In this document: positions 41,589 through 62,245 of the stretch, in pieces
Layout of the letters: every line of letters starts with the position of its first letter
Position numbering within the stretch: position 1 is the stretch's first letter
Origin: Pseudomonadota bacterium
GTDB taxonomy: Bacteria; Pseudomonadota; Alphaproteobacteria; Micavibrionales; UBA2020
Reading direction: 5' to 3'
NCBI GenBank assembly: GCA_023444705.1
Contig: JAEXMB010000033.1
Location: forward strand, 581-64,580
Length of the DNA stretch: 64,000 bases
Made by a program: the position numbers and the translations under genes
Notes under the pieces: model-generated
What the model was told of the DNA's origin: nothing
The model's database searches: none
What the model saw: only the letters and a program-made list of their open reading frames with translations

Positions 41589-42218
41589 TTACTTCTTGCC
41601 TTCCTCGACGGGGACAATCTGGACCTGCTGCGGCTGCTTGGGTGCAGGGGCAACTTGTCCCGGACGGCGCATCTTCGGCTGGTTGGCGCGGCGTTCGCGC
41701 GCTTCTTCCTCGGCTTTTTTGCGGTCTTCGATTGCTTTGCGGCGTGCCTCGGCCTCGGCTTCGCGCTTGGCCTTGAGGTCCTGCATGCGCTCAAGGCGTT
41801 TTACACGGTCCTGGCAAACAGCATAGATGTCGTATGAATTCAGGTATGCCGCACACGGATCGGTGGGCAAACTGCTGGCATCAAGTTGTCCCGGCGCTGT
41901 GGCAGGTGCGTTGCCTTGTACAGGCGCTTGCGCCTGTGGCTGGGTCACCGGCACTGTCGGCGCGACAGGTGCCGACGGCAGGGCCGGAGGAACCGTTGAA
42001 GCTTGCGACGGCGTGTCAGTGCCCTGGAATACCGGCGGCAGCGTTTGCGCCTGCGGCGCAGACGGAGTCGTCACACCCGTGATGGGCGACGGCGTACCGC
42101 TTGTTCCCGCACTGTCGGTGCCGGTCGTGCCGCTAAAAGCCTGCGCCTGCGCAGGTTGCGCAGCGAGTGGCATGGATAGCATCGCAAGGACAGCAAAAAT
42201 ACCGAATGAAACGCGCAT
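41589..42218 (-). CDS. secreted Pro/Thr/Gln-rich protein with a Cys pair and a Lys/Glu-rich tail
   Basis: GGGGAA RBS. Signal peptide MRVSFGIFAVLAMLSMPLAAQPAQA. DPCAAYLNSYDIYAVCQDRVKRLERM followed by KAKREAEAEARRKAIEDRKKAEEEARERR. Confidence 0.65.
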   Translation of the reverse strand: MRVSFGIFAVLAMLSMPLAAQPAQAQAFSGTTGTDSAGTSGTPSPITGVTTPSAPQAQTLPPVFQGTDTPSQASTVPPALPSAPVAPTVPVTQPQAQAPVQGNAPATAPGQLDASSLPTDPCAAYLNSYDIYAVCQDRVKRLERMQDLKAKREAEAEARRKAIEDRKKAEEEARERRANQPKMRRPGQVAPAPKQPQQVQIVPVEEGKK

Positions 42219-42368
42219 ATTATTCCCCGTAGACATGGTCCAATGTGCCGACGGCCATTGCATGAAACCACCTGATATTATTAATTTTAGGCCTGTTGGC
42301 GGAATTTGAAAAGGGCGCAGGCGGTCAAAACCACCCTAAATATCCCCGTTCTTGTTGTTTTATAATGA

Positions 42369-42815
42369 TTATTTCTTTTTTGACGGCTTGGCGGCGCCGC
42401 TTTTGTCGCGCGGCGAATCCGCGGGCATCGCGTCATCGTCTTCATCATCGCTGACGCGCTTGTAATTACGCGGGGTTTCCTCAACCGGCGCGTTTTTGAC
42501 GGCTTTTTTTTCGACCGCGCGCTCGCGCAGGCGTTTTTGGCAATCGGCATAAGGGGTCAGGGAATTGCGCTTGATCTCTGCCGACTCGTCCGGTCCAAGC
42601 TCTTCAAAGCATTTGCTGACCGAGGTCACCACATGCGACCCAGCCACGGGTACCTCGGCCTGCGCGGGTGCGGGGGCTTGCGGCGCTGCAGGCGGTTCGT
42701 ACTGCGCAGGTTGCTGGCGGTAATACTGCTCAAGCGCGGGTTGCTGTGCCACTGCCGCGGTGGCGAAAGCAACGCAGAAGAAAACAGCACCGGTAAGAAA
42801 ACGCATTAAGGCCAT
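42369..42815 (-). CDS. secreted protein, architectural paralog of 41589..42218
   Basis: Signal peptide MALMRFLTGAVFFCVAFATAAVA. P/Q/A-rich stretch. SKCFEELGPDESAEIKRNSLTPYADCQKRLRERA. Basic/acidic tail ending AAKPSKKK. Confidence 0.65.
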   Translation of the reverse strand: MALMRFLTGAVFFCVAFATAAVAQQPALEQYYRQQPAQYEPPAAPQAPAPAQAEVPVAGSHVVTSVSKCFEELGPDESAEIKRNSLTPYADCQKRLRERAVEKKAVKNAPVEETPRNYKRVSDDEDDDAMPADSPRDKSGAAKPSKKK

Positions 42816-44689
42816 GACGGCGGATACCCATAGGGATAGATTGGCACCTGACGCGGCGTATGCGTGCGGCCTGTTTTCTTAAGGTGCGCGTTAAACACCT
42901 CCATCAAGCGTTCCAGACGATAGCTATAGGCGATGTCATAGGGCGTGATGCTGTTCTGGTCGCGTGCCAGCGGGTCAAAGCCGTTATCAAGCAGATGACG
43001 CACTACGCCTTCCGCCCCTGCCGCGCGCGTGATCGCCATATGCAGCGGCGTGCGGCCATTGCTGTCGCGGGCATGCCTGTCACTGCCGTGGAACATCAAA
43101 CGGCGCACTTCCGCCAGCTGGCCGCTTTGCGCCGCCAGATGCAACGGCGTACGGCGGTTGCTATCGCGGGCAGAAACATCGGCCCCTTTGTTGACAAGCG
43201 CCGCCGTTACGTCTGCGCGCGCCATTGCGATTGAAAGGTGCAACGGCGAAAAACCGCTGTCATCCTGCACCTTGACGTTAGCGCCCGCCTTGATGAGTTC
43301 ATGCGCAACGCCCGCGTGTTCGGCGTGCAATGCCGCCAGCAGCGGTGTGCGCTGATATTTGTCGCGCGCCTCAAGCTCCGCCCCCGCCAAAACCAGACGC
43401 GCCAGCAACGAGGCCGACAGGCCATCGCCACCCCAATGCAGCACGTTGCGCTCTATTTTATCCTTGAGCGCAGGATTGGCACCTTGCTCGAGCATGATTT
43501 CGACCAGGTCGTAAAGGCTGTTGCTTGCCGCCATCATCAAAGGCGTCACGCCGTTTTTGTCCGCACGGTTGCCGTCGGCACCCTGCCCGAGCAAAATGCG
43601 TGCCGTGGCGCGCTGGCCTGCATTGACAGCTACCAGCAACGCACTGGCCCCATCCTTGCCGTCGGCGGCATCAAGCGTGGCGCCGTTTTCCAGCAGCAGA
43701 TAGACCAGTCCGGCTTTACCCGCCTTGGCCGCGATGTGCAGCGGCGTCATGCCTTTGTCGTCGTAGTGATTGGTCAGCGCGCCCTGCGTCAGCATTTCCT
43801 GCGCCAGCGCCTCGTGGCCAGCCTCGACCGCCAGATGCAATGGCGTGCGGCCTTCGTGATTGACGGCATTCAGCAGCTCCGCCGTCCAGCCCTGCAACAA
43901 GGTCATGGCACAGGCCGTGTCGCTGCGCTTGACTGCTTCGTGCAGGCAGGTCTGGCCGTCGTGCGTGGCGGCGTGCGGATCAAGACGGTAGTAAAGCAGT
44001 TTTTCAAGTGCGGCCTGATGGCCGCCGCGCACCGCGTAATGCAGTGCCGTCGCCCCCTTGCCGTCGCGCCGGTTGGGATCAGGCGTCGCTTCGACGATGC
44101 GCGCCAGCAGGTCAAGCGCGTTATTGACATTTCCAAGTTGCGCCGCCGCATGCAAGGGCAATACGCCGGCCTTGTTGGCCAGCGTCACGTCCGCGCCGGC
44201 ATCAAGCAGGATGGCAGCCAGACCTGCCGTTTCCGGTTTGGCCAATGCAACGTGCAAGGGTGTATCTGTGTTCTTGGCGGCCGTATTGGGATTGGCACCA
44301 CGTTCCAGCAACAACGTAACCAGCGGCAGCGAGCCCTGTTGAAGCGCGTGATGCAAAGCCGTCTGGCCCAGCTTGTCGGCGCGCTCGACATCCGCACCGC
44401 TTCTGACGATGCGTGTGGCAAGGTCGATATTGCCCGCGATGACCGCATCCATCAAAATGGTGCGCCCGCTGGCAGCGTCAGAGATACGGTCCGCATCACG
44501 CACAAACCCGCGGTTGCGCGGGGTCAGGCGGTCGTTATCATTGAGGGCAGCCGGCAGCGGCAACATATCCTTGCCGTCCGCTGCGCCAGTGCGCGCGGTC
44601 TTGTTCTTTGCGCTGCGCGTGCGCGGCTTGGCCGCGCGGCGGCTGTGCGTATTAAAGATATGCCGGTTTTTTCTGTGACGCATGGCCAT
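42806..44689 (-). CDS. large ankyrin-repeat protein (about 15 repeats), candidate effector
   Basis: Repeats such as GQTALHHALQQGSLPLVTLLLERGANPN, GRTPLHLAVEAGHEALAQEMLTQGA and GRTPLHMAITRAAGAEGVVRHLLDNGFDP. Confidence 0.9.
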   Translation of the reverse strand: MAMRHRKNRHIFNTHSRRAAKPRTRSAKNKTARTGAADGKDMLPLPAALNDNDRLTPRNRGFVRDADRISDAASGRTILMDAVIAGNIDLATRIVRSGADVERADKLGQTALHHALQQGSLPLVTLLLERGANPNTAAKNTDTPLHVALAKPETAGLAAILLDAGADVTLANKAGVLPLHAAAQLGNVNNALDLLARIVEATPDPNRRDGKGATALHYAVRGGHQAALEKLLYYRLDPHAATHDGQTCLHEAVKRSDTACAMTLLQGWTAELLNAVNHEGRTPLHLAVEAGHEALAQEMLTQGALTNHYDDKGMTPLHIAAKAGKAGLVYLLLENGATLDAADGKDGASALLVAVNAGQRATARILLGQGADGNRADKNGVTPLMMAASNSLYDLVEIMLEQGANPALKDKIERNVLHWGGDGLSASLLARLVLAGAELEARDKYQRTPLLAALHAEHAGVAHELIKAGANVKVQDDSGFSPLHLSIAMARADVTAALVNKGADVSARDSNRRTPLHLAAQSGQLAEVRRLMFHGSDRHARDSNGRTPLHMAITRAAGAEGVVRHLLDNGFDPLARDQNSITPYDIAYSYRLERLMEVFNAHLKKTGRTHTPRQVPIYPYGYPPSWP

Positions 44690-44713
44690 GCCTCCATAAA
44701 AAACAATCGCGCG

Positions 44714-45826
44714 TCAGCGCCCGAAACGCGGTGGTGCCTTGGGGCCGACGAATTTCTTTTCCTCAATCAGGGCACGGTGCGCCTTCTCGAAATGGTCGCG
44801 CAGCCGGAAAGATTCTTCGCTCTTCATGAAATCGTAAAGCTCGCGATGGTTCTGCTGGCTGACAAGGTCAGCGGCGGTTTGCCCGCTTTTGTTTTGCGCC
44901 AGCGCATCAGCACCCGCGACCAAAAGCTCGATCGCAATTTCGTCATAACCGCGTCGCGCCGCGGCCATCAATGCTGTTTCGTCATACATGTCAGGCATCG
45001 GCGCATCCACCGTGGCGCCTGCTGCCAGCAAAATTTTCACGCAATCAATCTGCTTTTTGATCACGGCGGTATGCAACGGTGTATGGCCGCTGGCATTGCG
45101 TGCATCAATATCGACACCATGATCGATCATGGCCTGCAAAACAGCGATACGCCCGTCCGCCGCCGCCAGATGGAACGGCGTCTGCCCTTCGTTATTCCTG
45201 CATGTCGCATCAGCACCCGCCTGCAACAGCGCAACGGCATGATCGGAGGTATTGCGCCCCGCCGCCAGATGCAAGGCCGTCGCGCCGTCCTTGGTACGGC
45301 GCAGTTCAACCAGCGCACCGGCATCAAGCAAGGCCGCAATCATATCCTCGCGCGGGGCCGACAATGCCGCCAGCAAGGGCGTATCGGCACTGATGTCCTT
45401 GTTGACCAGAAGGCCGCCGGTGTTCACACCCATGCCACGGCCTGTGCGTAACAAGACGCCAAGCGCTTCGGGCTTGTTGGCATCCACCGCATACAGCACG
45501 GCGTTAAAATCACCCGTGACGATGCTTGCACCAAGGTCGCGCAGGCAGGCGACGGTTTCACTATCGCCGTCGCTGATCGCATAGGCCAGCGCGGGCAGAC
45601 CTGCGGCGTTTGGCATATCGGGTACCGCGCCCAGCGTTTTAACCGCCTCGACGATGCGGGCCTTGCCTGCCTTCTGACGGCACAATTCGTGCAAATAGGT
45701 ATTGCCTTCGGACGTAACAGGCTCGTTGACCTGTTCAGGCAGAGGGCGCGGCACAGTGACCGCCGCCGTCTCGGGGGCGGTATCGGGGGCGGTGGTCTCT
45801 GCCGGTTTGTTGTCTTCTTCTTGCAC
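44714..45826 (-). CDS. ankyrin-repeat protein, candidate effector
   Basis: GQTPFHLAAADGRIAVLQAMIDHGVDIDARNASGHTPLHTAVIKKQIDCVKILLAAGATVD. Confidence 0.9.
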   Translation of the reverse strand: MQEEDNKPAETTAPDTAPETAAVTVPRPLPEQVNEPVTSEGNTYLHELCRQKAGKARIVEAVKTLGAVPDMPNAAGLPALAYAISDGDSETVACLRDLGASIVTGDFNAVLYAVDANKPEALGVLLRTGRGMGVNTGGLLVNKDISADTPLLAALSAPREDMIAALLDAGALVELRRTKDGATALHLAAGRNTSDHAVALLQAGADATCRNNEGQTPFHLAAADGRIAVLQAMIDHGVDIDARNASGHTPLHTAVIKKQIDCVKILLAAGATVDAPMPDMYDETALMAAARRGYDEIAIELLVAGADALAQNKSGQTAADLVSQQNHRELYDFMKSEESFRLRDHFEKAHRALIEEKKFVGPKAPPRFGR

Positions 45827-45869
45827 AGTGTGCCGTCCTTGCTTTATCGGTTCATCAGTATGGTTTATT

Positions 45870-47111
45870 TCAGCGCGGCTTTGAAGGGTAAAAACCCCCG
45901 CGCCCGCGTCTGGTGCGCACGGGTGCCGCGCGCATATTTCTTCTGCCGCGGCGCAGTTTGGCAGAATCCGGCCATTTGCGCTGTGCGTCCATAACGATCT
46001 TGCGCGTCATCTGCTGCATCGGCGCCTGGCACACCATATCGGGTGTGCGCATTCTGCTGTCGGCGATCGTCGGGTCAGCACCCGCATCAAGCAAGGCGAT
46101 CACCGTGTCGCGGCGGTTATGGTGCGCTGCCAGCCACAAGGGCGTCTGGCCCAGGTGATTGCGCGCATTGAGGTCATGCGGCGCCAGCGCCAGCACGCGC
46201 AGGAACAGATCATGGCGCATGCCGCGCGCCGCGATATGCAGCAGTGTGGTGCCATCATTGCGTCTGGCCTGTGGCGGCACGCCCGCCGCCAGCAAATAAT
46301 CAAACGCCTGCACCCAGCCTTTCTCTGCCGCGAGCATCAGCAAGGTTTCCCCGCCCGCGCTGGCGGTTTGCAACATATCCGCCCCCGCATCATGCAGACG
46401 GCGCAGCAAATCAGCGCTTTCAACCATGCTGGTGCGGTGGCAGATCAGGAATTGCACCGGTGTCTGCCCGTCGCTGCCGCGGGCATTGATGTTGATCCCG
46501 TAGTCGATCAGCACATCAAGAAGATCCGCGCGTTGCGCCGCCAGCACGGCGCGCAAAGTATCAATGCGCAGGCCTTTTCGCGCATATGTCGTGTGGACTG
46601 CCAGCGCCTGCGGACTGCGCAACAGCAGGCGCAGGATTTCCGGCGTGCTGTCCGCCGCCAGATGAAAGGCATTCATCTCGTTACGGTCGATGTCATAGGC
46701 CGCCAGTGCGGGGTTGGCGCCGTAATGGAGCAGCCATGCCACCGCTTTTGCATCGCCCGCTATCACCGCCTGATGCAACATGGTCAAACCGCGCGGACCA
46801 TAAGCGTCGATATCTGCCCCGTGGTCGAGCAACATGACCGCACTGCCGCTTTGCCCCGCACGCAACGCCGCATGCAACGGCGTCAGGTGGCTTGCGCACC
46901 GCGCATCGGCGTCACAACCCGCGCGCAGCAGCGGTTCGATCAGCGCCGTACAGCCGCGCCGCGCTGCCACATGCAAAACGCTTTCACCGTTGTCATAGCG
47001 ATAGCTTGCCACATCGCCACGCTCTGCAGGCGCAAGCGCCTGCCATATGGCCATGATATCATCAGCACTCTGGCTTGTCAGTGCGCGCGCAAACGCCGCC
47101 ATAGTATTCAT
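45870..47111 (-). CDS. ankyrin-repeat protein, candidate effector
   Basis: GESVLHVAARRGCTALIEPLLRAGCDADARCASHLTPLHAALRAGQSGSAVMLLDHGADID. Confidence 0.9.
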   Translation of the reverse strand: MNTMAAFARALTSQSADDIMAIWQALAPAERGDVASYRYDNGESVLHVAARRGCTALIEPLLRAGCDADARCASHLTPLHAALRAGQSGSAVMLLDHGADIDAYGPRGLTMLHQAVIAGDAKAVAWLLHYGANPALAAYDIDRNEMNAFHLAADSTPEILRLLLRSPQALAVHTTYARKGLRIDTLRAVLAAQRADLLDVLIDYGININARGSDGQTPVQFLICHRTSMVESADLLRRLHDAGADMLQTASAGGETLLMLAAEKGWVQAFDYLLAAGVPPQARRNDGTTLLHIAARGMRHDLFLRVLALAPHDLNARNHLGQTPLWLAAHHNRRDTVIALLDAGADPTIADSRMRTPDMVCQAPMQQMTRKIVMDAQRKWPDSAKLRRGRRNMRAAPVRTRRGRGGFYPSKPR

Positions 47112-48547
47112 GGCTGGCGGCCGCCCGGCCCGTAATGCCCACGAAACAGCGGTTTGACGTCACGGCGCAGCGCTTCGGCAAGTATGGGAACGGTCTGCTC
47201 TTTGGCGCGCATATTGACTTGCGCGTAATACATCGCTGAATGCCCGTTGTTATCGAGCAGGCGCGGATTGGCCCCCGCCTGTAACAGCTCGCGCATCGTG
47301 TCGCCCTGCCCCAATGCTGCCGCAATCATCAGCGGCGTGCGCGCATCATGGTCATGGCGCGCGTTGGGGTCCGCACCGGCGGATAAAAGATTGGTGATTT
47401 CATGCAGGCTCGACCCTTCGATCGCCAGCATCAACGCGGTGGCGCCGTCGCGGCTGCGTACATTCACACGCGCGCCATAGCGCAAAAAGACCGACAGCGT
47501 TGCTGTCACGCCGCCAAAAGACATCAGGCGGTGCAACGGCGTTGCACCGCTGTGCGGGTCGTGCGCATTGACATCCGCACCCGCTTCGATCAGCAGGCGC
47601 GCGATCTGCGCGCGCACGTCATCGTTCATGCTGCGAATACCCGCCAGATGCGCAAGCGGGGTCGTCTGCAATTGTTTAAGCACCCCCTGGCCCGTTGCCA
47701 TCACCGGACGGCAGGCATCTGCCCCCTTGGCCAGCAGGACCGCAACCAATGCCGCGTCAGCGCGGTTGATCGCCAGCAACAGCGGCGTCATGCCGTCATC
47801 GCGCGCAAGATTGACCAGCGCGCCGTCATCGATCATGGCATCGACCAATGCCGCATCCGCGCGCATGACCGCAAGGTGGAACAGCGTGCGTCCCTCGCGG
47901 TCGCCGGGCAGGCGCGCGTTAAGGTCGGCGATAATTTCGCGCTGGCGCAACAAGCTTTGCGCGGCAACGGTTTTTTTGGCATTGAGAGCGGCCATCATCG
48001 GCGTGACGTGCAGCGCACTTGGCGTGCGCAAATCCACGCCCGCCGCGGCAAAGGCCAGGATGACATCACCCATGTCTTTTTCGCAGGCGCGGTGCAACAG
48101 GTCTTGCGTGGCCTGCATATTGTCGGGGCAACCGCCACATGTGATCAGCGTGGCGGCGGCGGCGGCCTTGCCGAAATGAATCGCGTCTTGCAGCGGTGTG
48201 CGGCCTGCATCGTCAGCGATACCACGGCGCACATCCGCACCGGCGCGCGCCAGCAGGGCGATCATGTCGGCGCGGTCAGCGCGCGCTGCGATATGGATGG
48301 CGCTTTCGCCGCTGGCGTTGGTCGCATTGGGGGACATTCCCGCCGCCAGTTGCGCGCGCACCCCTGCGCTATCACCGTTTTTCACCATGCGAAAGAAGGC
48401 ATCAACATCGCTTTGCGGGGTCAGCGCGGCGGTTTTCAAACGGTTGAACAGACTGCCCAGCACGCCTTCACTTTTTGGTTGCGCGTCGTCACCACCCGAA
48501 GGGGCGGCACTGTTTTTCGGGTCTGGCGGTCGTGGTGTAAATGACAT
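47108..48547 (-). CDS. ankyrin-repeat protein, candidate effector
   Basis: GESAIHIAARADRADMIALLARAGADV and GATPLHRLMSFGGVTATLSVFLRYGARVNVRSRDGATALMLA. ATGA-coupled to the next gene. Confidence 0.9.
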   Translation of the reverse strand: MSFTPRPPDPKNSAAPSGGDDAQPKSEGVLGSLFNRLKTAALTPQSDVDAFFRMVKNGDSAGVRAQLAAGMSPNATNASGESAIHIAARADRADMIALLARAGADVRRGIADDAGRTPLQDAIHFGKAAAAATLITCGGCPDNMQATQDLLHRACEKDMGDVILAFAAAGVDLRTPSALHVTPMMAALNAKKTVAAQSLLRQREIIADLNARLPGDREGRTLFHLAVMRADAALVDAMIDDGALVNLARDDGMTPLLLAINRADAALVAVLLAKGADACRPVMATGQGVLKQLQTTPLAHLAGIRSMNDDVRAQIARLLIEAGADVNAHDPHSGATPLHRLMSFGGVTATLSVFLRYGARVNVRSRDGATALMLAIEGSSLHEITNLLSAGADPNARHDHDARTPLMIAAALGQGDTMRELLQAGANPRLLDNNGHSAMYYAQVNMRAKEQTVPILAEALRRDVKPLFRGHYGPGGRQP

Positions 48548-48706: not shown

Positions 48707-49237
48707 TTATGGTGCGGGTTTTTGGCCAGCACCTTTGAATGCCGCCTGCGGCGCGCGCAAGGTCACTTCTTTTTTAAGCGCCATGTCTTCTTCACCTTGC
48801 GGATCGGGCAAGGCCGCCAGCAAGCGCGTGCTGAGTTTCTTTTGCCCTTCGTTAAGGTCCCATCCCTCGGATTTGCGTTTACGCATTTGCGTTAGCAGAA
48901 TTTCAAGCGCGCTTTCCTTGCCGAGAGTAAGGTTCGGGTCCGCGCCACGGTCCAGCAAGGATTGCGCAGCACTCAGATGGTCGTTGCGGACATAAGAAAT
49001 CAAAAACGTATCGCCGTCAGGCTTGCCGTTGACACTGGCATTGATGTCCGCGCCTGCCGCCAGCGCAAGATCGATCATATCCCAGTGGTGGGTGGCGTGG
49101 CCCTGCCGCAAGACCGCCTGCGCATCCGCACCTTTATCAAGCGCCTGTTTAAGCATCGTCAGATCCTTGGTTGCAAAACAAACATCAAGCGCAAGGGCAA
49201 GCGCGCGCTTCACATTTTCGGGGTTGGCGGTATTCAT
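48707..49237 (-). CDS. short ankyrin-repeat protein, candidate effector
   Basis: I chose the start at ATG 49237, which is ATGA-coupled to the upstream HExxH gene. Sequence LKQALDKGADAQAVLRQGHATHHWDMIDLALAAGADINA. Tail GAGQKPAP. Confidence 0.7.
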   Translation of the reverse strand: MNTANPENVKRALALALDVCFATKDLTMLKQALDKGADAQAVLRQGHATHHWDMIDLALAAGADINASVNGKPDGDTFLISYVRNDHLSAAQSLLDRGADPNLTLGKESALEILLTQMRKRKSEGWDLNEGQKKLSTRLLAALPDPQGEEDMALKKEVTLRAPQAAFKGAGQKPAP

Positions 49238-50229
49238 GCGACCCTCATGCTGAAACTGTAGCCGGACATTTTGGGGTCGCGCGCCCTTTGCCGCGGAACG
49301 CGGATATTCGACAGGCGTAAAATATCCTGCCACTCCTCGCTGTGCCGCGCCTGGTCCTTGATGAATTCTTTGACCGGCGGATAGTTCAAGAACCGCTTTC
49401 CTGCCTTGATCACGTCGGCGTTATCTGCGGATGCATGCATGACCTTGGCCGTTTCGCGGCAGAACAGCGCATACGCCTCCTCATCACGGCCATAGAGCGC
49501 CCTGACAATGTTGTGCGGCGTTTCATAGCGTTGGTGATATGCTTGCGCCGCATCGTTGAACTTCATGGCAAGCAGATGGTGCGATATGCGCGTATGCATA
49601 TGTCTGCCCACGATATCGTGCGCCAGCGCCGCTGTTTCGTCGAGCGATAGCGCGCTGATGTCGTGCTTGCACGCATGCCTGCGCACAGCCGCCAGAATAT
49701 CGTCGGTATAATGAATAGGCGAGGTACCAAGCACCAGCGTACTGGCCTTGTTCGCGTATTTGAAAAAGTCGCTATCAAGACCAAAGCGCTGGATGTGGCG
49801 CAGGGCCGCAAAAGCATCGGCACGGCATTCGCCTTCATGGCCGCCGATCATCCCGCGCTCCATCACCTGATGGCCGATTTCGTGGTCGAGTACATAGAGC
49901 GTGCGCATTTCAAGCGTATAGCGCGGCGTGAACACCCCGGGCATCTCGCGCAACAGGCCGATCATCTTGATCCCCGCCACGCCGCCCAGTACGGTGGGAT
50001 GATACGCCATGCCCGCAGCGTTGCGTTTTTTGATATATGCGCTTTCCTGATGGATGCGTGCGCGCAGGGCACGCGTTTTCTCGCTCAGGTCATCGGCGAT
50101 CGCGCTCGAGATAAAAACAGGCGCGTCGCTGTCGGTGACGAAAACGACCAGACGCTGCAGACGCTCGGGAAAGCTCTGACAGGCATCGCGCAGGGAGTGC
50201 TGCACTGTGGTGTGAAGATCGTTTTGCAT
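49234..50229 (-). CDS. HExxH-motif protein (putative zinc metallopeptidase), paralog 1
   Basis: YVLDHEIGHQVMERGMIGGHEGECRADAFAALRHIQRFG. Alignable along its whole length with 50385..51341. Confidence 0.7.
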   Translation of the reverse strand: MQNDLHTTVQHSLRDACQSFPERLQRLVVFVTDSDAPVFISSAIADDLSEKTRALRARIHQESAYIKKRNAAGMAYHPTVLGGVAGIKMIGLLREMPGVFTPRYTLEMRTLYVLDHEIGHQVMERGMIGGHEGECRADAFAALRHIQRFGLDSDFFKYANKASTLVLGTSPIHYTDDILAAVRRHACKHDISALSLDETAALAHDIVGRHMHTRISHHLLAMKFNDAAQAYHQRYETPHNIVRALYGRDEEAYALFCRETAKVMHASADNADVIKAGKRFLNYPPVKEFIKDQARHSEEWQDILRLSNIRVPRQRARDPKMSGYSFSMRVA

Positions 50230-54560: not shown

Positions 54561-54865
54561 GGACCCTGATATTTCGCGGAGGATAGACAGCTTGCGCCAG
54601 TCTGCACGTCCCGGTCTTTAATGTATACAGCCGCGTCCATACGGGGCACCTCGCCGGATTGTTTACAGAATCTGGTATTTTTCCATTTTCTGCGTGCAAC
54701 GCGTCAATTTTTTGCATTGATTGCGCCTGCGGTTATCCAAACGTAGCAAGATTACACTTTTCCGCCTTTTTTCGTTTTTACGGGGTTGTCCACAGGTCGC
54801 CTGCTTGCTACGGTTTTGCGGTATTCAAAACGGGACCCGCCGACGTGAAAAAGTTTTTCAACGCC

Positions 54866-56284
54866 ATGTCCGACCGCACCAGCCGCGATCTTGACCGGAT
54901 CGGCAGCAAGGGTCTGACGCGCCTGCAACAGGCCGCGGATGAAAACGACACCGACCGCATCCGCCTGCTGTTGCGCCGCAAAGCCGACATCAACGAAACC
55001 GGCCTGTGCGGCGAAACCGCCCTGCACCGCGCCGCGCGCCACAACAACTACAGCGCCGCGCGCCTGCTGGTCGATATGGGTGCCGATGTCAACCTGCCTG
55101 ACGCGCAGGGGCAAACAGCGCTCCACAATGCCGTCCTGCATGGCAACACGATGATCGTCGCCCGCCTGATCGAAGCCGGCGCAGACGTCAACATCGCCGA
55201 TCACGAGGGCCGCACCGCCATGCATATGGTGCCGCGCGGGTGCGAGGATATTTTCACCCAGCTGGTGGCGCAGGGCGGCGACGTCAACGCGCTCGACAAG
55301 CAAGGCTATCCGCCGCTCAACTACCATCTGCGCCACGACAGGCTGGTCACGGCCATCATCAATCTTGGTGCCGACCCCAATCTTTCGACGACACAGCCAT
55401 CGCCACTGGTCACCGCACTGAGCATCCCTTTGCTGGCCACACATCCCGCAATCATCAGAAGCCTGCTGGCAGGCGGCGGCGACGTTAACGCGCGCAGTGC
55501 GTCAACGGGCGAACCGCTGATCCACCTTGCCGCACGCAGCGGCCAAAACGCCCTGCTGGTCGAAGCCCTGGCGCGCAAAGCCGACGTCACCGCAACCGAT
55601 CCCGCGGGCATGACCGTCGCGCATGCGCTGGCGCAACTGCCCCAGCCCGACCTGATGCGCCTTGTACTGTTGCGCGCGCCCGATCTTGCGCGCACACGCG
55701 CCAAGGACGGCACCACGCCGCTGCATCTGGTCGTGCAGCATCTGACGCAAACGCCGTTGCGCGGTGCCGAAACCCATGTCGCAACGCTGGTGCAACTGGC
55801 GCAACTGCTGATCGAATACGGTGCCGATCCTTCGACCGCCACCACCAACGGCACGACCCTGCTGCACGAGGCCACGACGCGCAACATGCCGGGCTTCATT
55901 GATTTCCTTGCCAAGCATAAGGCGGATTTCAACCTGCGCGACCAGCAGGGCAACGCCGCGCTCAATGTCGCGATCACCGCGCGCAATGTGGAACTGCTCG
56001 ACCGCTTGCTCGACCACGGCGCCGATCCGGACCTTACGGATGCACGCGGCTGGACAGTGCTTGACCGCCTTGCTGAAAAGAAAGACCGCGAAAGCCCGAT
56101 CGTGCAACGCCTGATCGTGGCGGGCGGGCAATACAACAAACAGTTGCCCCTCTACCCCGATCTGATCCGTCCGCGCAAAAACACAGCTCCGGCCCCCGCC
56201 AATGACACCGCGCCCAAGCCAGCGCCCGAGACTATTGTCTCGCCGATCAAAAAGATCATCAAGCGCCAGCCACCAACAAATTAA
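54866..56284 (+). CDS. ankyrin-repeat protein (about 12 repeats), candidate effector
   Basis: GETALHRAARHNNYSAARLLVDMGADVNLPDAQGQTALHNAVLHGNTMIVARLIEAGADVN. I chose the start at ATG 54866. Tail KIIKRQPPTN. Confidence 0.9.
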   Translation: MSDRTSRDLDRIGSKGLTRLQQAADENDTDRIRLLLRRKADINETGLCGETALHRAARHNNYSAARLLVDMGADVNLPDAQGQTALHNAVLHGNTMIVARLIEAGADVNIADHEGRTAMHMVPRGCEDIFTQLVAQGGDVNALDKQGYPPLNYHLRHDRLVTAIINLGADPNLSTTQPSPLVTALSIPLLATHPAIIRSLLAGGGDVNARSASTGEPLIHLAARSGQNALLVEALARKADVTATDPAGMTVAHALAQLPQPDLMRLVLLRAPDLARTRAKDGTTPLHLVVQHLTQTPLRGAETHVATLVQLAQLLIEYGADPSTATTNGTTLLHEATTRNMPGFIDFLAKHKADFNLRDQQGNAALNVAITARNVELLDRLLDHGADPDLTDARGWTVLDRLAEKKDRESPIVQRLIVAGGQYNKQLPLYPDLIRPRKNTAPAPANDTAPKPAPETIVSPIKKIIKRQPPTN

Positions 56285-56392: not shown

Positions 56393-57403
56393 ATGTCATC
56401 CAGCGAAAACGACAGCACCGGCGGCTCCGCGCGCAGTGCCTATAACAGTGCCGCCATAAGCGGCGACGACGGCACGACCAGCGTTGACCCCCTGGCCGAT
56501 CTGCCGCCGCGCGTGCGCGACTTTTTGCGCAATGCCGATGTCGCGCAACCGCTCAAGGATCTGTGCCTGCACATTCTCCCTGCTGCCGATTTTGCAACTT
56601 TCAAAAGACGTCTTGATCGCGGTGACTTTGACGCCCACCTGACCTGTGATGCGCACCCAATGGGCGGTCTGCTTGCGCAACTGGCGGCGGCCCCCAAGGA
56701 ACTTGGCAACGACTGGCTACAAGCCGTGGCACAACGCGAGGCTTTCGCCGTCGATGCGCTCAGCGTCCCCTACTATTACACGGGAAGTTATTACAGCAGT
56801 CACATCAAGGACTATACCGGCCAAAGCGTGTCACAACGCCCGCTTGGCAGCTGGATGCTCGGCCATCGCAGCATGAAATACCCCGATCTCGCGCAATTCT
56901 GCGCGCGCCTGCTTGCACATGAATACAAAGCCAATGACGTATCGCAACCGATCGCCCATCACGCGATTTACGGCACGCCGACGCTTGAATACCTGCGCGA
57001 CTTCGCCGACAAGGCAGGCACGCTTGACTTCATCAACGTAAAAAACGCCAATGGCGAAAGCGTTTTTTACCGCCTTGCAACCAATAAAAACCTCTATAAC
57101 CACGCATCGACGCTGAATGTGCTGAGCTGGCTGCTGGAGCGCAAGCCCGAGCTGATCCACACCACCGACGATGCCGGCTGGACGGCGCTTGACCGCTATG
57201 TCCTGCAGATGACGGTGCAAAGCGGCGTCTCGCAAGCCGTCACCACCGAAAGCGGTATGCTGCGCCTGTTGCTTGCATCGGGCGCGCAGTTCCGCCGGCA
57301 AACGCCGCCGGGCATGTCACTGGTGGACTATCACAATAATCAGCAGACGACCACGCTGCTCGGCAAACCGGCAGCGGCAGGCCCGATCAAACGCAAACCC
57401 TAA
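56393..57403 (+). CDS. hypothetical protein with 2-3 C-terminal ANK-like repeats, candidate effector
   Basis: NANGESVFYRLATN...LNVLSWLLERKPELIHTTDDAGWTALDRYVLQ. Tail AAGPIKRKP. Confidence 0.6.
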   Translation: MSSSENDSTGGSARSAYNSAAISGDDGTTSVDPLADLPPRVRDFLRNADVAQPLKDLCLHILPAADFATFKRRLDRGDFDAHLTCDAHPMGGLLAQLAAAPKELGNDWLQAVAQREAFAVDALSVPYYYTGSYYSSHIKDYTGQSVSQRPLGSWMLGHRSMKYPDLAQFCARLLAHEYKANDVSQPIAHHAIYGTPTLEYLRDFADKAGTLDFINVKNANGESVFYRLATNKNLYNHASTLNVLSWLLERKPELIHTTDDAGWTALDRYVLQMTVQSGVSQAVTTESGMLRLLLASGAQFRRQTPPGMSLVDYHNNQQTTTLLGKPAAAGPIKRKP

Positions 57404-57817: not shown

Positions 57818-57999
57818 ACCATTGCCAGCGAGGCATTTTTTAAACCAGACAGACGAAAAACATCGCAAAATCGCTTATTTTATTGCTTTTTTGAACAGCC
57901 ATTCACATGAAATGTTTGCACTGGCGTCCCCCCGCCTGCTATACCCCTAAGCGCATTTTTATTTTCCGAGAATCATTTAAGCACCAAAGGCTAACGACA

Positions 58000-58590
58000 A
58001 TGGGACGCAAGCTGGAATTCAGCAAAGACAAGGCGCTGTTACAGGCAATGGAAAGTTTCTGGGCGCAGGGCTACGACGCCACCTCGATGCGCGACCTCGC
58101 CCAGCGCCTTAACCTTCACCTCGGCTCGGTCTATAACGCCCTCGGCGACAAGGAAGAAGTCTTCGAGCAATCCCTGCGTCTCTACCTCAAGCACAAGGTC
58201 GTCCCTGTGATGTCGGCACTGGAAAGCAGCGAAGACCCGCGCGCCGCACTGTCGCAGTTCATCGACAAAATCATGGTTGACTGCCGTGCGGACAGTACTT
58301 CGCCCGGTTGCTTCATCGTCAACTCCCTGCTGTGCATCACCCGCATCAATGACAAGATCACCTCTGCCGTCCACGAATACATGCAGGTGCAGGAAGCCGC
58401 CATTTCCGCCTGCATCGCGCGCGCGCAGGCCGCCGGACACATTGACCGCGACGAGCGGCCCCAGCAACTAGCGCGCTTCGTCATCGCCTCGCTGAAATCC
58501 ATGCATGTGATGAAAAAGATCGGCGTCAATGACGACTATCTGCAGGACATCCGCGATACCGTCGACCGCCGCCTGTTTCAGGCCGCCTGA
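58000..58590 (+). CDS. TetR-family transcriptional regulator
   Basis: N-terminal HTH AMESFWAQGYDATSMRDLAQRLNLHLGSVYNALGDKEEVF. Start at ATG 58000. Confidence 0.85.
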   Translation: MGRKLEFSKDKALLQAMESFWAQGYDATSMRDLAQRLNLHLGSVYNALGDKEEVFEQSLRLYLKHKVVPVMSALESSEDPRAALSQFIDKIMVDCRADSTSPGCFIVNSLLCITRINDKITSAVHEYMQVQEAAISACIARAQAAGHIDRDERPQQLARFVIASLKSMHVMKKIGVNDDYLQDIRDTVDRRLFQAA

Positions 58591-58611
58591 CGCACGTCAC
58601 CGCCTGCCCCC

Positions 58612-59550
58612 CTATAATTTGAATTTATCGGGCCGCTGCGCCTGCTGTCGCGCGTTGATGTCTTCGCGCTTGAGCGCCGCCACGAAAGGTGCGAGGCTGA
58701 CTTTGTCTTTCATGCCAAAGGCCTCAAGCGCCTCGTGCAGCTTGAACGCATCCTCGCGCGCCGCGCGCCAGTGACGCGCATCAAAAACCTCCGTCAGCCG
58801 TCCGCGGGCGGCCAGAATACCAAGCAAAGTAACAGGCGCACCGGTGCGGTCATAGCTGATCGGATTAATGAATGCCGCCGCACGCCACTGGTTGCCGGCA
58901 GCGCGCATATGGTCAAACCGCGCCAGTGCCGTGCGCGCATCACCATGTGCGCAGGCCGCCTGCCACCACACCCTGTGCGTGTCTTCGTCACGGCGTTCTT
59001 CGTCAAAAACCTCGCGCAGCATCCTGGGCGCAAAGGGCGACATGCCCTGTTCGATCAGCAATTGCATCAGCTCGGGGCGGCATTCGTCGATGGCGATTTC
59101 TACCGCATCGCCGCCCAGTAACACATCAAACCCCGCCGCTGCCAGTTGCGGCACCACTACGGGGGCTGCAGCTTGCCGCCACGCATCGCCGATCAGCGTG
59201 CGCACATCGATTTCAGGCGCGGCAGCCACCACAGGCGCGAAAGCCTGCGCCACCGCTTCCTGTTCGGCCCCATCCACAAATTCAAGCTTGTCGACGATCG
59301 CCTTGAGGTCCTCGCGCTTTGGCACATAGCCGCGTGACAGGATATCCGCCGTCAGGGCGGATTTTCCGGCCAGAACCGCGGCCTCAAGCACAGCAATGGT
59401 CAGGGTATGGCGCGGTGTTTTCTGCGCGGGCGAAGCATCAAGGTATTCCTTGAGCAACGGCCAGTCCTTGGCATCCGCCGCGCGGTTGAGCGCAAACCAA
59501 AAACTGAAATCATCCGCAGGCAATTCTTTGTCGTCATCAGGCATGTTCAT
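58612..59550 (-). CDS. degenerate ANK/helical-repeat protein with a shared C-terminal module ending FKL
   Basis: Start at ATG 59550, ATGA-coupled. C-terminus PVTLLGILAARGRLTEVFDARHWRAA...RQQAQRPDKFKL. Confidence 0.6.
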   Translation of the reverse strand: MNMPDDDKELPADDFSFWFALNRAADAKDWPLLKEYLDASPAQKTPRHTLTIAVLEAAVLAGKSALTADILSRGYVPKREDLKAIVDKLEFVDGAEQEAVAQAFAPVVAAAPEIDVRTLIGDAWRQAAAPVVVPQLAAAGFDVLLGGDAVEIAIDECRPELMQLLIEQGMSPFAPRMLREVFDEERRDEDTHRVWWQAACAHGDARTALARFDHMRAAGNQWRAAAFINPISYDRTGAPVTLLGILAARGRLTEVFDARHWRAAREDAFKLHEALEAFGMKDKVSLAPFVAALKREDINARQQAQRPDKFKL

Positions 59551-60743
59551 GCGCCATTGCTCCCGCCTGCGGGTGCCAGCTTGAAGCAAGGCATCGGCGT
59601 TCCGATGCGATGGCGGCCAAACGCTGACCTGACCCTGCCGAGATCGACCTGCGCCTGCAGGTGTTGTGGTAATTGTCCGTGCATAGCCGCCGCCAGTGCG
59701 AAATCGCCGCGCCATGCCGCAGGATCAAAGGCCTGCGCCAGTTCCCCCCGCACGGCCAGCACCTCGGCCAGCGTGGCGCCATGTTCGTCTTGCGCTTGCA
59801 ACAGGTTGATGCCCGCCTGCGGCAACAGCGGCGCAACCACGCGCAGAAACGCGCCGCTGCGCGTCAGCGCAAATGCGGCCTGCGCACCCTCGGCACTGTG
59901 CAGGCTCTGCGCTGCCAGCACGCGACAGCTATGCGCCAGTGTTTGCGCATCAAGCACTTGGTGATTATCTGCATGCACCCAGGCTTGCATCAGCTCGCGC
60001 ACGCGCGCCGCGCGCATATTATCTGCGCCTGCTTCTTCAAGAAGGGCGAGATGCGCGGCTTTTTGTGCTGCATCGGGGCGGTAGCCTCTCTCGTAAAGAT
60101 CGCGCAAAATCGCGTAGGCGTGCTTTTTCATTGCTACGTCGTACAACGTATGCGCGGGCAGGCCTTCTTGCAGCGCGATGGCCGCATCGTCCGCATATTC
60201 GTTGTGGGCGATGGCTTCCAGCGCCGCCAGCAGTGCATCGGCCATCGCTTTTTCATCCATGCCGGTGCGCAACTCCGCCGGTTTTTCCAGCGACGCGATA
60301 TAGGGTAATTCATGCAGCATGTGGCGAAACAGCACGGGTGCTGCGTTGACCATGTTACCCAGTACGCGCGGCATATGCATGACCTTGGCGCCGCACGCGA
60401 TCAGCCATTGCGCAACCTCCCAGCGGCTGTTTTCAAGCGCGCAGTGCATGGGGTATTGCGCGATAGTCACGGCAGGATTGCTGTCGTCGAACAGGAACCC
60501 GTCGACCTTCACACCCAGCGCATGCAAACGTTGCGCAACAGCCAGATGGCCTTTGGCGCAGGCCGCGGCCAAGGCATCCTCGCCAGCGGCGCGCACAATC
60601 GCGGGCTCTGCCGTGATCAGCTTTTGCAGGCCGTCAATGTCGTTGCCGTCCGCACAAGCGATCAGCATTTGCTTGCGCTGCGCCTGTGTTGTAGAGGCCA
60701 GCAGGAAATCAATTGTCGCTGTCGGAAGGTCTTGCGCGTTCAT
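59547..60743 (-). CDS. degenerate ankyrin-repeat protein with a shared C-terminal module
   Basis: ACADGNDIDGLQKLITAEPAIVRAAGEDALAAACAKGHLAVAQRLHALGVKVD. C-terminus GATLAEVLAVRGELAQAFDPAAWRGD...MPCFKLAPAGGSNGA. Confidence 0.65.
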   Translation of the reverse strand: MNAQDLPTATIDFLLASTTQAQRKQMLIACADGNDIDGLQKLITAEPAIVRAAGEDALAAACAKGHLAVAQRLHALGVKVDGFLFDDSNPAVTIAQYPMHCALENSRWEVAQWLIACGAKVMHMPRVLGNMVNAAPVLFRHMLHELPYIASLEKPAELRTGMDEKAMADALLAALEAIAHNEYADDAAIALQEGLPAHTLYDVAMKKHAYAILRDLYERGYRPDAAQKAAHLALLEEAGADNMRAARVRELMQAWVHADNHQVLDAQTLAHSCRVLAAQSLHSAEGAQAAFALTRSGAFLRVVAPLLPQAGINLLQAQDEHGATLAEVLAVRGELAQAFDPAAWRGDFALAAAMHGQLPQHLQAQVDLGRVRSAFGRHRIGTPMPCFKLAPAGGSNGA

Positions 60744-62245
60744 AGCTTGAACTGCCCGTTGCTGGCGCGCTGGCGTGCTTCGAGCGTATCCAGCTGGACC
60801 TTGTGCAACAACGCGTGGCGCGCTTGGGGCGGCAGATATTTATCGTCAATCACCGACAGTAGCGCGCGCAGCGGTGCAACCCTGCCTGTCCAGAAATCCG
60901 GCGACAGCAGGATATCAAGCTGCCCGCTGGCCGCTGCCAGGTCGACCAGCCGCACACCGGCGGGGTTTTTAGCTGTCCATACCACACTATCAGGCAGCGC
61001 GATCATTTCACGGCGCAACAGAATATCAAGAACGCGATGGCGCGCGGCGTGGTGCAGCAGGCCTTCGTAGCAGCCCTTGACGGTGGGAACATGCGGATCG
61101 CGATAGACCTGCGGCGCCAGCGCGGCATCATCGTCAAGTGTTTGTTGCGGCATCAGCCGAGCTGCATTGCGCGCGCGCAGGTTTTGGGTGCTGGCATCGA
61201 TGCGCGCAATCGTTTCAGCGCACAGATCGGGGCGAACCCATTGCCCGACCGCCTGGATTGCCGCCACGGGATTGGCGCCAGTGGCCAGCAACGTATCGAC
61301 AATGCCCATGCGGCGTTCGATTTCATCCGCGCGTGCATCGGCATGGGCGTCACGCGCGTTCAGTGCGGTGGCAAGGTTGCGCACGGCATGGCGGATGGCG
61401 GCATTGTCAAAAGCCAGCGGATCACCGCCAAAGCGCTGCGCAATGCGCGCGCATTCGATATTGTTTTTATCAAGCGCCGCCACAAGCATCTGGCCGATAT
61501 GATCGTCGTTGAGGTAGTCGATCCCATGATCGAGCAATGCCTGAAACGTGCGCGCATGGCCTTCGGCAGCCGCGCGGATGGCGATGTTGTGAAAGGCGTT
61601 GTTGAACGGCGAAAACACGCCATCCGCAGCGCTGAAATGCGCCGTAAGAATTTCAAGCGCGAGTTCCGCGCGGTTATTGGCACTGCAGGCATGCAGGTAG
61701 TTGACTAGCAGCTTGATCTTTTTTTCCGCCAGTTGCGGGCCAAGCCCGCAGGCAGGCGCAATCAATGCGCGCGCCAGCGCCGCATGGCCTTCGCGCACGG
61801 CCAGTCCGGCCAATGCCGCCTTTTCCTCGTAATTGGTATAGGCGGCATCACAGGCCGCAAGCCATGTCAGTGCCGCATCATTGTGCGCAATGACAGCACC
61901 CTGCCAGGCGGCGTGACACAGGCTGGCGATATCGCGGCGTTGTCCGTGCGTGTCGTAAAGTGCCGCCAGTACCGCGCTGTCGCCCTGCCCGCCGGCGGCG
62001 CGCCAAAGAATTTCCGCCGGTGCGGGCACGTTGTTTTCGGCGATGATGACCAGCGTATCGCGCAACGCGCGCGCGTCTTGTGCGGCAATCGCGCGCAATG
62101 CCGCATCAACGCGTGCCTGATGCGCGGCCGCCACCTGAAAGGGCAGACGCGAGCTGGGCGACAAACGTGTACGCGCGGCGCGGGAGCGCATGGGCCAAAT
62201 ACCGGAAAAACAAGTTAACTCAATGGGTTCGCGCAAGTCTTGCAT
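60740..62245 (-). CDS. degenerate ANK/helical-repeat protein with a shared C-terminal module ending FKL
   Basis: C-terminus GVRLVDLAAASGQLDILLSPDFWTGRV...RQRASNGQFKL. The start may instead be the internal ATG at 62191. Confidence 0.6.
   Translation of the reverse strand: MQDLREPIELTCFSGIWPMRSRAARTRLSPSSRLPFQVAAAHQARVDAALRAIAAQDARALRDTLVIIAENNVPAPAEILWRAAGGQGDSAVLAALYDTHGQRRDIASLCHAAWQGAVIAHNDAALTWLAACDAAYTNYEEKAALAGLAVREGHAALARALIAPACGLGPQLAEKKIKLLVNYLHACSANNRAELALEILTAHFSAADGVFSPFNNAFHNIAIRAAAEGHARTFQALLDHGIDYLNDDHIGQMLVAALDKNNIECARIAQRFGGDPLAFDNAAIRHAVRNLATALNARDAHADARADEIERRMGIVDTLLATGANPVAAIQAVGQWVRPDLCAETIARIDASTQNLRARNAARLMPQQTLDDDAALAPQVYRDPHVPTVKGCYEGLLHHAARHRVLDILLRREMIALPDSVVWTAKNPAGVRLVDLAAASGQLDILLSPDFWTGRVAPLRALLSVIDDKYLPPQARHALLHKVQLDTLEARQRASNGQFKL

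Follow-up and report, generated by a model that had tools for sequence, protein, structure and literature searches.

Ankyrin-repeat genes next to a phage head-tail-lysis cluster in an uncultured alphaproteobacterial lineage: a possible accessory arm of a domesticated, gene transfer agent-like element

Phage WO is the one well-known phage that carries genes for ankyrin-repeat (ANK) proteins (PMC9203015). ANK matches are found in 21 of 50,697 deposited phage records, and 13 of these 21 are records of Wolbachia WO. WO possesses a recombinase, replication genes and a baseplate/contractile-type tail. In the 'Ankyphage' of sponge symbionts, which are bona fide viral genomes, the phage-encoded ANK protein ANKp is thought to act on the eukaryotic host and is secreted by means of signal peptides. 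Here, we describe ANK genes that adjoin phage genes in a 64,000-nucleotide stretch of DNA (hereafter the window; contig JAEXMB010000033.1, positions 581 to 64,580) from a bacterium placed in the alphaproteobacterial order Micavibrionales. An earlier, sequence-only reading of the window had noted an island of ANK and other candidate effector genes at positions 41589-62245 and had taken it for an effector arsenal serving a type IVB secretion system (T4BSS) encoded in the same window. The best explanation that we can offer, held with about half confidence, is that the core of this island belongs, as a conserved accessory arm, to an ancient phage-derived, vertically inherited and domesticated element, resembling a gene transfer agent (GTA), in an alphaproteobacterial lineage that bears a T4BSS.

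GTA particles carry random pieces of host DNA, each shorter than the locus that encodes the particles, and transfer them. Among the GTAs, BaGTA is linked to secretion-system and host-adaptation loci, and conserved ANK or Sel1 genes are not known from the unit of any described GTA. Large RcGTA-like clusters have been reported to be absent from Micavibrio and Rhodospirillales (PMC5721377), and a 2024 review placed effector-type T4BSSs in gammaproteobacterial groups (PMC11338181). In the literature on ankyrins, type IV secretion or GTAs in Micavibrionales or Micavibrio, we found no description of the arrangement reported here.

The phage-proximal part of the island is an operon of four ANK genes followed by two genes for secreted proteins, all on the reverse strand. 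In the direction of transcription, the conserved ANK genes are ANK479 (47108-48547; Pfam Ank_2 2.7e-41; 9 repeats), ANK413 (45870-47111; Pfam ANK; 7 repeats), ANK370 (44714-45826; Pfam ANK; 5 repeats) and ANK627 (42806-44689; Pfam Ank_2 3e-78; 13 repeats and a very basic N-terminus). ANK calls were made at the Pfam gathering threshold, and repeats were counted with a hidden Markov model built from the ANK proteins of the window. The last two genes had been singled out before as encoding secreted Cys-pair proteins, which agrees with what we see: sec148 (42369-42815) has a signal-peptide-like N-terminus, a Pro/Ala/Gln-rich linker and a Cys-pair segment, and sec224 (41589-42263) has a signal-peptide-like N-terminus, a Cys pair and a charged coiled-coil-like tail. 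Neither protein has a Pfam or PHROG match. The gaps between genes from 48547 down to 41589 range from -4 to 105 bp, ANK413 overlaps ANK479 by an ATGA, and such overlaps, as noted earlier, occur at five junctions. Proteins of the window recur unchanged on metagenome contigs, an identical copy of ANK413 being present on ERZ24927784 and SRR13366722.

Directly 3' of this operon, 242 bp away and on the same strand, begins a complete, co-oriented phage head-tail-lysis cluster that runs from 41346 to 23334 and was identified with Pfam and PHROGs. The sequence-only reading had not mentioned this cluster, and its relation to the ANK genes is the subject of most of what follows.

To see how far the arrangement is conserved, relatives were drawn from three scans, covering one genome per GTDB species, IMG/VR, and metagenomes with a gpJ profile, followed by tblastn and maps of open reading frames (ORFs). 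A locus was counted as related if capsid identity reached 65% or more and the available upstream sequence measured 4 kb or more. ANK genes lie 5' of the large terminase gene (TerL) in 28 of 30 related loci and in none of 61 outgroup loci, which carry a more distant terminase. The full order ANK479, ANK413, ANK370, ANK627, sec148, sec224 and small terminase gene (TerS) recurs in six of the relatives (L021, L022, L027, L031, L033 and L047). Many loci have an extra ANK gene of ~770 aa between ANK627 and sec148, and an antisense ANK gene of ~260 aa between sec224 and TerS. Throughout the clade, sec148 is found just 5' of TerS, and sec224 is likewise conserved. Further into the cluster, an antisense Sel1 gene recurs at an unchanged position in 24 of 26 related loci, and gpJ is followed by genes for a Pgp3-like protein, an endolysin, a holin, a spanin and the antisense ANK protein ANK201 in 10-11 of 11 relatives; the ANK201 orthologue itself holds its position in 10 of the 11 with enough downstream sequence.

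Near relatives by TerL (76-77% identical) are L003, L004 and L006, of which L004 is a metagenome-assembled genome (MAG) from a pond, labelled 'Alphaproteobacteria bacterium'; P0001-P0003 are closer still in TerL (86-90%). The synteny of L003, L004 and L006 equals that of the window, from a trypsin-FHA gene pair through the ANK genes and the secreted proteins to TerS and on to gpJ. Elsewhere, the MAGs that carry the unit are labelled Micavibrio, Rhodospirillaceae or Alphaproteobacteria. One MAG carries the unit (L017) and, in addition, an ordinary prophage whose TerL is related and which has no ANK gene (L039). We also encountered a decayed unit (L183, Ga0208830_1000001) in which TerL, portal and protease are gone, the capsid is reduced to an 83-aa fragment, and the tail, the lysis genes and a neighbouring ANK gene are left.

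We regard the ANK array as very probably one part of a phage-derived unit, which on gene order and recurrence would comprise the array, the two secreted proteins, the genes from TerS and TerL to gpJ, the lysis genes and a further ANK gene. The counts of 28 of 30 against 0 of 61 loci do not support the earlier picture of a free-standing effector island, at least for the core operon.

The array is also ancient. Positional orthologues of the ANK genes show 42-54% identity in near relatives and 32-39% in distant ones, with the gene order unchanged; for ANK479 the values are 44-51% in L003 and L006 and ~34% in distant relatives, and for ANK627 they are 51-54% near and 36-39% far. The ANK paralogues inside the window are 25-37% identical to one another, which is the level of the repeat consensus. 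Because the paralogues are thus further apart than the positional orthologues of near relatives, and the order is the same throughout, the array predates the clade. The sequence-only reading had suggested a long residence with paralogous expansion in situ. The long residence is supported, both by the orthologues across a deep clade and by base composition, which resembles the flanks as had been said (GC content is uniform across the window, ~0.55-0.63); the expansion, judged from all-vs-all comparison, is not a recent event and at best a very old one.

A terminator-like hairpin with a T-tract (41517-41554, reverse strand; dG -20.2 kcal/mol, z = -2.98) closes the operon between sec224 and TerS. 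Since it splits these two genes, the ANK and secreted-protein genes are probably a separate transcription unit that heads the late region. A scan for sigma-70 promoters and terminators gave about what is expected of shuffled sequence and missed the hairpin, which has an 11-nt loop; it was spotted by eye and then folded. Two sequences, AATCTTG and ATTCTTGCC, seemed to recur 5' of the ANK, TerS and T4BSS operons and were discarded as a shared regulatory motif, since they showed no enrichment over shuffled sequence.

The structural genes, all on the reverse strand, start with TerS (41105-41346) and TerL (39663-41099), and continue with the portal (38383-39675), an S78 protease (37391-38083), the HK97 capsid (36077-37363), a connector (34701-35348), a head completion protein (34372-34752), a gp17-like protein (32826-33245), the tail tube (32409-32822), a truncated tape measure of 104 aa (31688-32002), t118 (31311-31667), a DUF1833 protein (30841-31314), an NlpC/P60 protein (29857-30363) and a gpJ-like protein of 1388 aa (25797-29963). 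Next comes a gene (24783-25772, reverse strand) whose product aligns with Pgp3, a Chlamydia plasmid protein, in the C-terminal domain of the latter (3e-7). This product, probably a receptor-binding fibre, has an N-terminal part that is 44-64% conserved in relatives. The lysis cassette, also on the reverse strand, consists of an endolysin (23873-24349; PHROG 2e-51), a holin-like protein with two transmembrane segments (23688-23918) and an Rz-like lipoprotein, or spanin (23334-23597; PHROG 4e-5). Two genes run antisense on the forward strand, namely one for a secreted Sel1-repeat protein within the head-tail cluster (33332-33982; Pfam Sel1 5.7e-16) and ANK201 at its tail/lysis end (22766-23371; strong Pfam ANK; 4 repeats).

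The tape measure sets these units apart. Its homologue has 104-158 aa in every ANK/Sel1-linked unit, and outgroup phages with the same DUF1833/gpJ tail tip encode a tape measure of 640-1271 aa in the gene before t118. The 104-aa protein of the window aligns to part of three of these outgroup tape measures, in versions of 774-786 aa. The truncation is common to all ANK/Sel1-linked units, and the tail would therefore be very short.

Whether the unit is still a phage is the main question to be weighed. The alternative that survives best, and one we think unlikely, is an active temperate phage family with an ANK 'eukaryotic association module', comparable with WO and found outside Wolbachia. The ANK genes would then be lysogenic-conversion cargo of a phage that still excises, replicates and infects, and the genes for its lysogeny and replication would have escaped notice through small size or divergence, or would lie outside the available sequence. 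In favour of this, the genes for packaging, head, tail and lysis form a complete and intact set, WO provides the precedent for an ANK-carrying phage (PMC9203015), and three IMG/VR viral contigs show the same ANK-TerL arrangement, membership in IMG/VR being itself a prediction. The window also contains, next to the lysis/ANK201 end, a CI/LexA-like repressor with a helix-turn-helix and an S24 peptidase (19061-19750), accompanied by four divergent early-type genes without a family match (the block spans 19061-21870, between ANK201 and a ClpB-like gene). In 10 more distant relatives, no such block was found 3' of the lysis cassette, and so it may be a remnant or a lineage-specific early region.

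The genes that would make the unit mobile are missing from what we scanned. No integrase, recombinase or replication domain was detected in the window ORFs scanned, and the window yielded no tRNA genes and no att-like direct repeats, the repeat search giving only ANK-coding repeats. In relatives, the flanks vary (cmk-rpsA, ClpB-T4BSS, TetR or unk390-tdk) around an unbroken unit. The 56 flank ORFs of relatives include the housekeeping genes cmk, rpsA, tdk, tilS and gyrB, which abut the unit, and no integrase, recombinase or replication gene. Of the marks of a temperate prophage, those of packaging, head, tail and lysis are thus present, and an integrase or recombinase with att sites is not.

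Divergence points the same way. Identity matrices of TerL, portal, capsid, ANK627, ANK370 and the chromosomal DotC recover the same groups in seven genomes, and the identity values of TerL and DotC are nearly equal (r = 0.91; seven genomes, pairs non-independent). The capsid is 75-89% identical across the seven genomes compared and at most 45% identical to that of any deposited phage. The unit therefore has the genetic make-up of a GTA locus, a phage-like structural cluster without replication or integration genes that appears to be inherited vertically in its clade, as judged from co-divergence in seven genomes and from flanks taken from different relatives. We read it as a GTA-like element maintained by selection. 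Together with the clade-wide truncation of the tape measure, this makes it fairly probable that the unit is vertically inherited and domesticated rather than an active temperate phage.

The neighbourhood also records a rearrangement. A TetR-family regulator (58000-58590 or 57907-58590, forward strand; Pfam) and unk390, a membrane-anchored protein of 390 aa without a Pfam or PHROG match (62607-63779), lie beyond the ANK end of the unit in the window and beyond its tail end in relatives (L170, L173, L174, L177, L179 and L181-L183), the TetR orthologue being at the tail end in L170 and L173. The whole unit has thus been turned round relative to this flank. The oppositely oriented ANK genes at the two ends of the unit could mediate such an inversion.

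The T4BSS that the sequence-only reading had placed in the window is there, in the form of a fragment (2606-10207, reverse strand). It is headed by the small ANK gene ANK179 (9668-10207; weak, below the Pfam threshold, 1 repeat), followed by genes for a DsbG-like protein (8494-9504), an SLT protein (8009-8497), DotD (7268-7906; Pfam 5.8e-35, and 114.6 bits in NCBIfam, where the cut-off is 140), DotC (5998-7290; Pfam T4SS_TraI 8.7e-71, and 5e-33 to Legionella DotC in the solved core complex, PDB 6x62), DotB (4799-6019; 375 bits with the Dot/Icm model vs 229 with plasmid TraJ, below the equivalog cut-off of 463), a 90-aa protein in the IcmT position (4505-4777), the site of an IcmT_2 match in relatives, and a TcpQ-domain protein (2606-3898). 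DotC, DotD and DotB, core components of a Dot/Icm system, are thus all present, with the remaining machinery (DotA, DotG/IcmE, DotH/IcmK, the DotL/M/N coupling complex, DotO and IcmS/W) lying outside the window, and a chromosomal DotD-C-B-IcmT operon in an alphaproteobacterial lineage is notable in itself. In relatives, DotB is followed by the IcmT_2 match and the TcpQ-domain protein only.

A DotC homologue and the element share a contig in at least seven genomes. The layout of L003 and L006 is that of the window, with the T4BSS ~33 kb 3' of TerL, and the ANK end of L015 adjoins the T4BSS and ClpB. The operon DsbG-like-SLT-DotD-C-B-IcmT of distant genomes begins with two or three small ANK genes, as it does with ANK179 in the window; a Dot/Icm-like operon with 1-3 small ANK genes at its head was seen in the window and in L239, L240 and L242-L244. 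On these grounds a link between the ANK genes and the Dot/Icm-like T4BSS is plausible. Two side observations concern the same region. A ClpB-like double-AAA+ protein of 895 aa and divergent sequence (15299-17986, forward strand) is transcribed divergently from the T4BSS block and, because the same pairing occurs in L015, L239 and L240, may be a T4BSS-associated unfoldase and not the housekeeping ClpB. In addition, an exact 24-nt repeat encoding ...ALHRAAR... occurs at 9532-9555 and 55017-55040. The second copy lies within the ANK gene 54845-56284, and the first is an out-of-context relic, intergenic and 5' of the T4BSS operon, at a place where relatives carry extra small ANK genes.

The ANK proteins most likely act as exported host-interaction proteins, as far as their sequences tell. 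None of them has a hydrophobic N-terminal segment. Each ANK orthologue group has its own conserved tail at the C-terminus, of low complexity and with many K/R, P, G and aromatic residues. The ANK627 group ends in ...PKRYNGYGGYYGG or ...PPRPPWGGYY, the ANK370 group in ...FEKSYKKFRP (consensus ...FE[KR]SYKK[FY]RP) and the ANK413 group in ...RGKRFQKPSSRGWKNRR. Such conserved, disordered tails suggest a targeting signal. Several ANK627 orthologues show R/K-x(3-5)-P-Y followed by a Gly/Tyr-rich end, reminiscent of the PY-type nuclear localisation signals of eukaryotes, and several ANK groups share an N-terminal F-N motif ahead of the first repeat. In Legionella and Coxiella, the signal of Dot/Icm substrates is C-terminal and consists of an acidic E-block and small polar residues. 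Export through the T4BSS is plausible because the lineage carries DotD-DotC-DotB-IcmT with small ANK genes heading the operon, and we rate this route as a serious possibility somewhat short of an even prospect.

If the ANK array is indeed the arm of a domesticated element, the core of the latter would consist of an HK97-type head, a tail with a drastically shortened tape measure and its own endolysin, holin and spanin, with no integrase, replication or repressor genes in the conserved core. The ANK genes would probably have entered as cargo of a phage, as in the eukaryotic association module of WO, and their fixation would date from the domestication of the prophage into a GTA-like locus for particles. 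Their products would act as exported host-interaction proteins, with the T4BSS as the most likely route.

Several observations weigh against this explanation. Two related loci (L012 and L028) have no ANK gene in the upstream sequence available, and both flanks of the unit were never seen together in one relative. The CI/LexA-like repressor and early-type genes at 19061-21870 might belong to a phage that is still active in this sublineage, and a strictly host-bound temperate phage could mimic the co-divergence, which was measured in seven genomes with non-independent pairs. On the secretion side, the window holds a T4BSS fragment only (DotD, DotC, DotB, the gene in the IcmT position and accessory genes), and the linkage of element and T4BSS in the window is not general, because they are ~95 kb apart in two distant genomes. 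The tails of the ANK proteins are basic and rich in Pro, Gly and aromatic residues, not acidic as the Legionella-type signal is; an alphaproteobacterial T4BSS could use a different signal. Finally, the labels of the MAGs suggest kinship with bacterial predators and not with proven intracellular symbionts.

A different exit is conceivable, in which the ANK proteins would leave the cell by means of the element itself, co-expressed upstream of the late genes and either freed by holin/endolysin lysis, as Shiga toxin is in lambdoid prophages, or packaged in particles. The stx and lysis genes of lambdoid phages hold a position like that of the ANK operon, which lies immediately 5' of TerS; the lysis cassette is the element's own and is conserved, the ANK proteins lack Sec signals, and the ANK627 orthologues have strongly basic N-termini. 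We nevertheless judge this route rather improbable, as the terminator-like hairpin lies between the ANK operon and TerS, the search for a motif shared upstream had no success, and the packaging of ANK proteins is without precedent.

On a wider reading, which is a long shot at the same level as the active phage, an uncultured alphaproteobacterial lineage at the level of an order would have domesticated a short-tailed phage into a particle or lysis machine of which the ANK and Sel1 proteins are functionally part. The proteins would reach a eukaryotic host by programmed lysis or in particles, or the GTA would preferentially mobilise the effector locus.

The model of the sequence-only reading, a chromosomal effector island that serves the T4BSS, would make the phage cluster an incidental neighbour and fares slightly worse than an exit by means of the element. 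ANK effectors are typical of Dot/Icm pathogens, the window does hold a T4BSS fragment together with ANK genes, and ANK genes sit beside the T4BSS operon in relatives. An incidental neighbour would hardly keep ANK-TerL adjacency and gene order in 28 of 30 related loci despite their differing flanks and in none of the 61 outgroup loci, and it is also at odds with the Sel1 gene inside the phage cluster, the ANK gene at its far end and the distance of ~95 kb to the T4BSS in distant relatives. We consider this model quite improbable.

Beyond the core operon, the island holds genes of a more varied nature. The sequence-only reading had counted seven clear ANK proteins. Six of these are strong in Pfam, with 3-13 repeats each, and together they make up ~37% of the island, far above chance. 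The two of them outside the operon are a small ANK gene (51435-51983 or 51435-51959, reverse strand; 3 repeats) and a divergently transcribed one on the forward strand (54659/54866-56284, starting with GTG at 54845 or ATG at 54866; 8 repeats). The seventh, a small ANK gene on the reverse strand (48707-49333, probably 48707-49237, encoding 176 aa), is marginal, with 1 repeat and an Ank score of 23.8 bits against a cut-off of 21.1. For the protein of 336 aa that had been described as a partial ANK protein (56393-57403, forward strand), the ANK signal remains below the Pfam threshold. Two more ANK genes had been listed outside the island, of which ANK201 holds up well and ANK179 is the weak one described above.

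At the far end of the island, three genes on the reverse strand that had been read as degenerate ANK genes encode helical proteins ending in ...FKL. One of them, 59547-60743, barely passes as ANK (Ank_2 28.7 against a cut-off of 27.3), 60740-62245 is sub-threshold, and 58612-59715 has no Pfam ANK match. The three genes are ATGA-coupled, and the ...FKL motif at or near the C-terminus is their sole shared feature, since BLAST among the three proteins found no mutual similarity. None has a PHROG match, and homologues were not found in any fetched relative locus. A single-sequence AlphaFold2 model of the 59547-60743 product is all-helical and of such low confidence (predicted local distance difference test, pLDDT, 49) as to be unreliable.

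The two HExxH proteins noted earlier are indeed paralogues, 47% identical to each other. Both genes are on the reverse strand. The first (49234-50229) is ATGA-coupled to the small ANK gene 48707-49237, a layout resembling that of an enzyme and its inhibitor, and the second (50385-51341) is preceded by the small ANK gene 51435-51959. Their family, seemingly confined to this lineage, has 57 members among 5.8 billion proteins, and where a source name is given, it is in all cases an alphaproteobacterial or Pseudomonadota MAG. The residues H116, E117, H120, E134 and H173 are invariant, and the AlphaFold2 model reaches a pLDDT of 93.6. The family has no Pfam or PHROG match and no PDB match in sequence or fold, and is a probable zinc peptidase.

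The FHA/protease pair, also noted before, is recovered by Pfam as an FHA-domain multi-pass membrane protein (52129-53118) and a secreted trypsin-like protease (53115-54560), both on the reverse strand and ATGA-coupled. Among relatives, this pair occurs 5' of the ANK genes in L003 and L006 only, and these two keep the small ANK genes without the HExxH genes. The HExxH pair, the small ANK genes, the FHA/protease pair, the TetR regulator and the ...FKL genes are, by this comparison of loci, lineage-variable additions to the unit. A reading as a defence island was also considered and rejected, the PADLOC matches being to generic protease or AAA domains only.

The weakest alternative holds that some ANK proteins, mainly the small ones paired with HExxH genes, are intracellular inhibitors or immunity proteins for co-encoded hydrolases in a predatory, non-intracellular lifestyle and are not directed at eukaryotes; the coupling of HExxH and small ANK genes, the relatives labelled Micavibrio (bacterial predators) and the self-protection described for Bdellovibrio (PMC4686830) speak for it, and it is very improbable, given that the large ANK proteins (5-13 repeats) have no enzyme partner, that L003 and L006 keep small ANK genes without HExxH genes, and that a Dot/Icm-like T4BSS and a Sel1 protein fit interaction with eukaryotes better.

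Should the reading of the unit as a particle or lysis machine prove true, it would be a second, independent 'eukaryotic association module', alongside the first effector-type Dot/Icm system outside the Gammaproteobacteria. WO has so far been the main example of a bacterial virus with eukaryote-like genes, and a second, unrelated case would mean that the coupling of phage structure and host interaction is recurrent; the present one is conserved over deep divergence and apparently domesticated. The unit, with its exact genes, tails and lysis cassette, offers a testable handle on how ANK proteins without Sec signals exit the cell. The Dot/Icm-like genes and the numerous ANK and Sel1 proteins also mark this environmental alphaproteobacterial lineage as a probable, so far unrecognised associate of eukaryotes. 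For annotation, the case is a warning that 'effector islands' beside secretion systems may be arms of phage-derived elements.

How, then, does the locus compare with the described systems? Ankyrin-mediated self-protection is documented in Bdellovibrio, in which an ANK protein shields the predator from its own DD-endopeptidases (PMC4686830). Like Bd3460, the small ANK genes of the window stand beside a gene for a secreted or cell-wall-active hydrolase in a predator-related lineage, and HExxH and ANK genes are translationally coupled. The partner here has a novel HExxH fold and is not a DD-endopeptidase, and the comparison fits the small ANK genes at most. Unlike the Ankyphage protein, the ANK proteins of the window have no signal peptide, and the element looks domesticated.

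With the ANK effectors of Legionella and Coxiella, the locus has in common multiple ANK proteins without Sec signals, homologues of DotB, DotC, DotD and IcmT, and ANK genes beside T4BSS genes. It differs in its alphaproteobacterial host, in the basic, Pro-rich tails, and in having its genes in a single conserved operon attached to a phage-derived cluster, where those of Legionella and Coxiella are scattered.

In evolutionary status, a GTA is the closest analogue. The likeness to GTAs such as RcGTA and BaGTA, which here is one of genes only, lies in a head-tail cluster of ~16 kb without integration or replication genes, in clade-wide vertical inheritance, in host-like composition and in a short tape measure. 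Unlike RcGTA, the element has a lambda-like tail tip (DUF1833, NlpC/P60, gpJ) and a lysis cassette inside the window cluster. Membership in the RcGTA family was considered and rejected, since TerL alone (N-terminal 320 aa, ~50%) matches rhizobial and caulobacteral loci, and portal and capsid do not match.

The closest comparison as to organisation is again WO. Its recombinase, replication genes and baseplate/contractile-type tail are not seen in the window element, which is siphovirus-type with a truncated tape measure, is flanked by housekeeping genes and co-diverges with a chromosomal gene. Host lineage and GC content (~60%) are different, and the protein families are unrelated, the ANK identity of ~30% being at the level of the repeat consensus. 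ANK genes are nonetheless adjacent to, and embedded in, the structural cluster, as in the WO module, and it is the status of the carrier as a phage genome that is doubtful. In both cases, in an alphaproteobacterium, arrays of ANK or eukaryote-like genes adjoin lambda-like or HK97-like structural modules.

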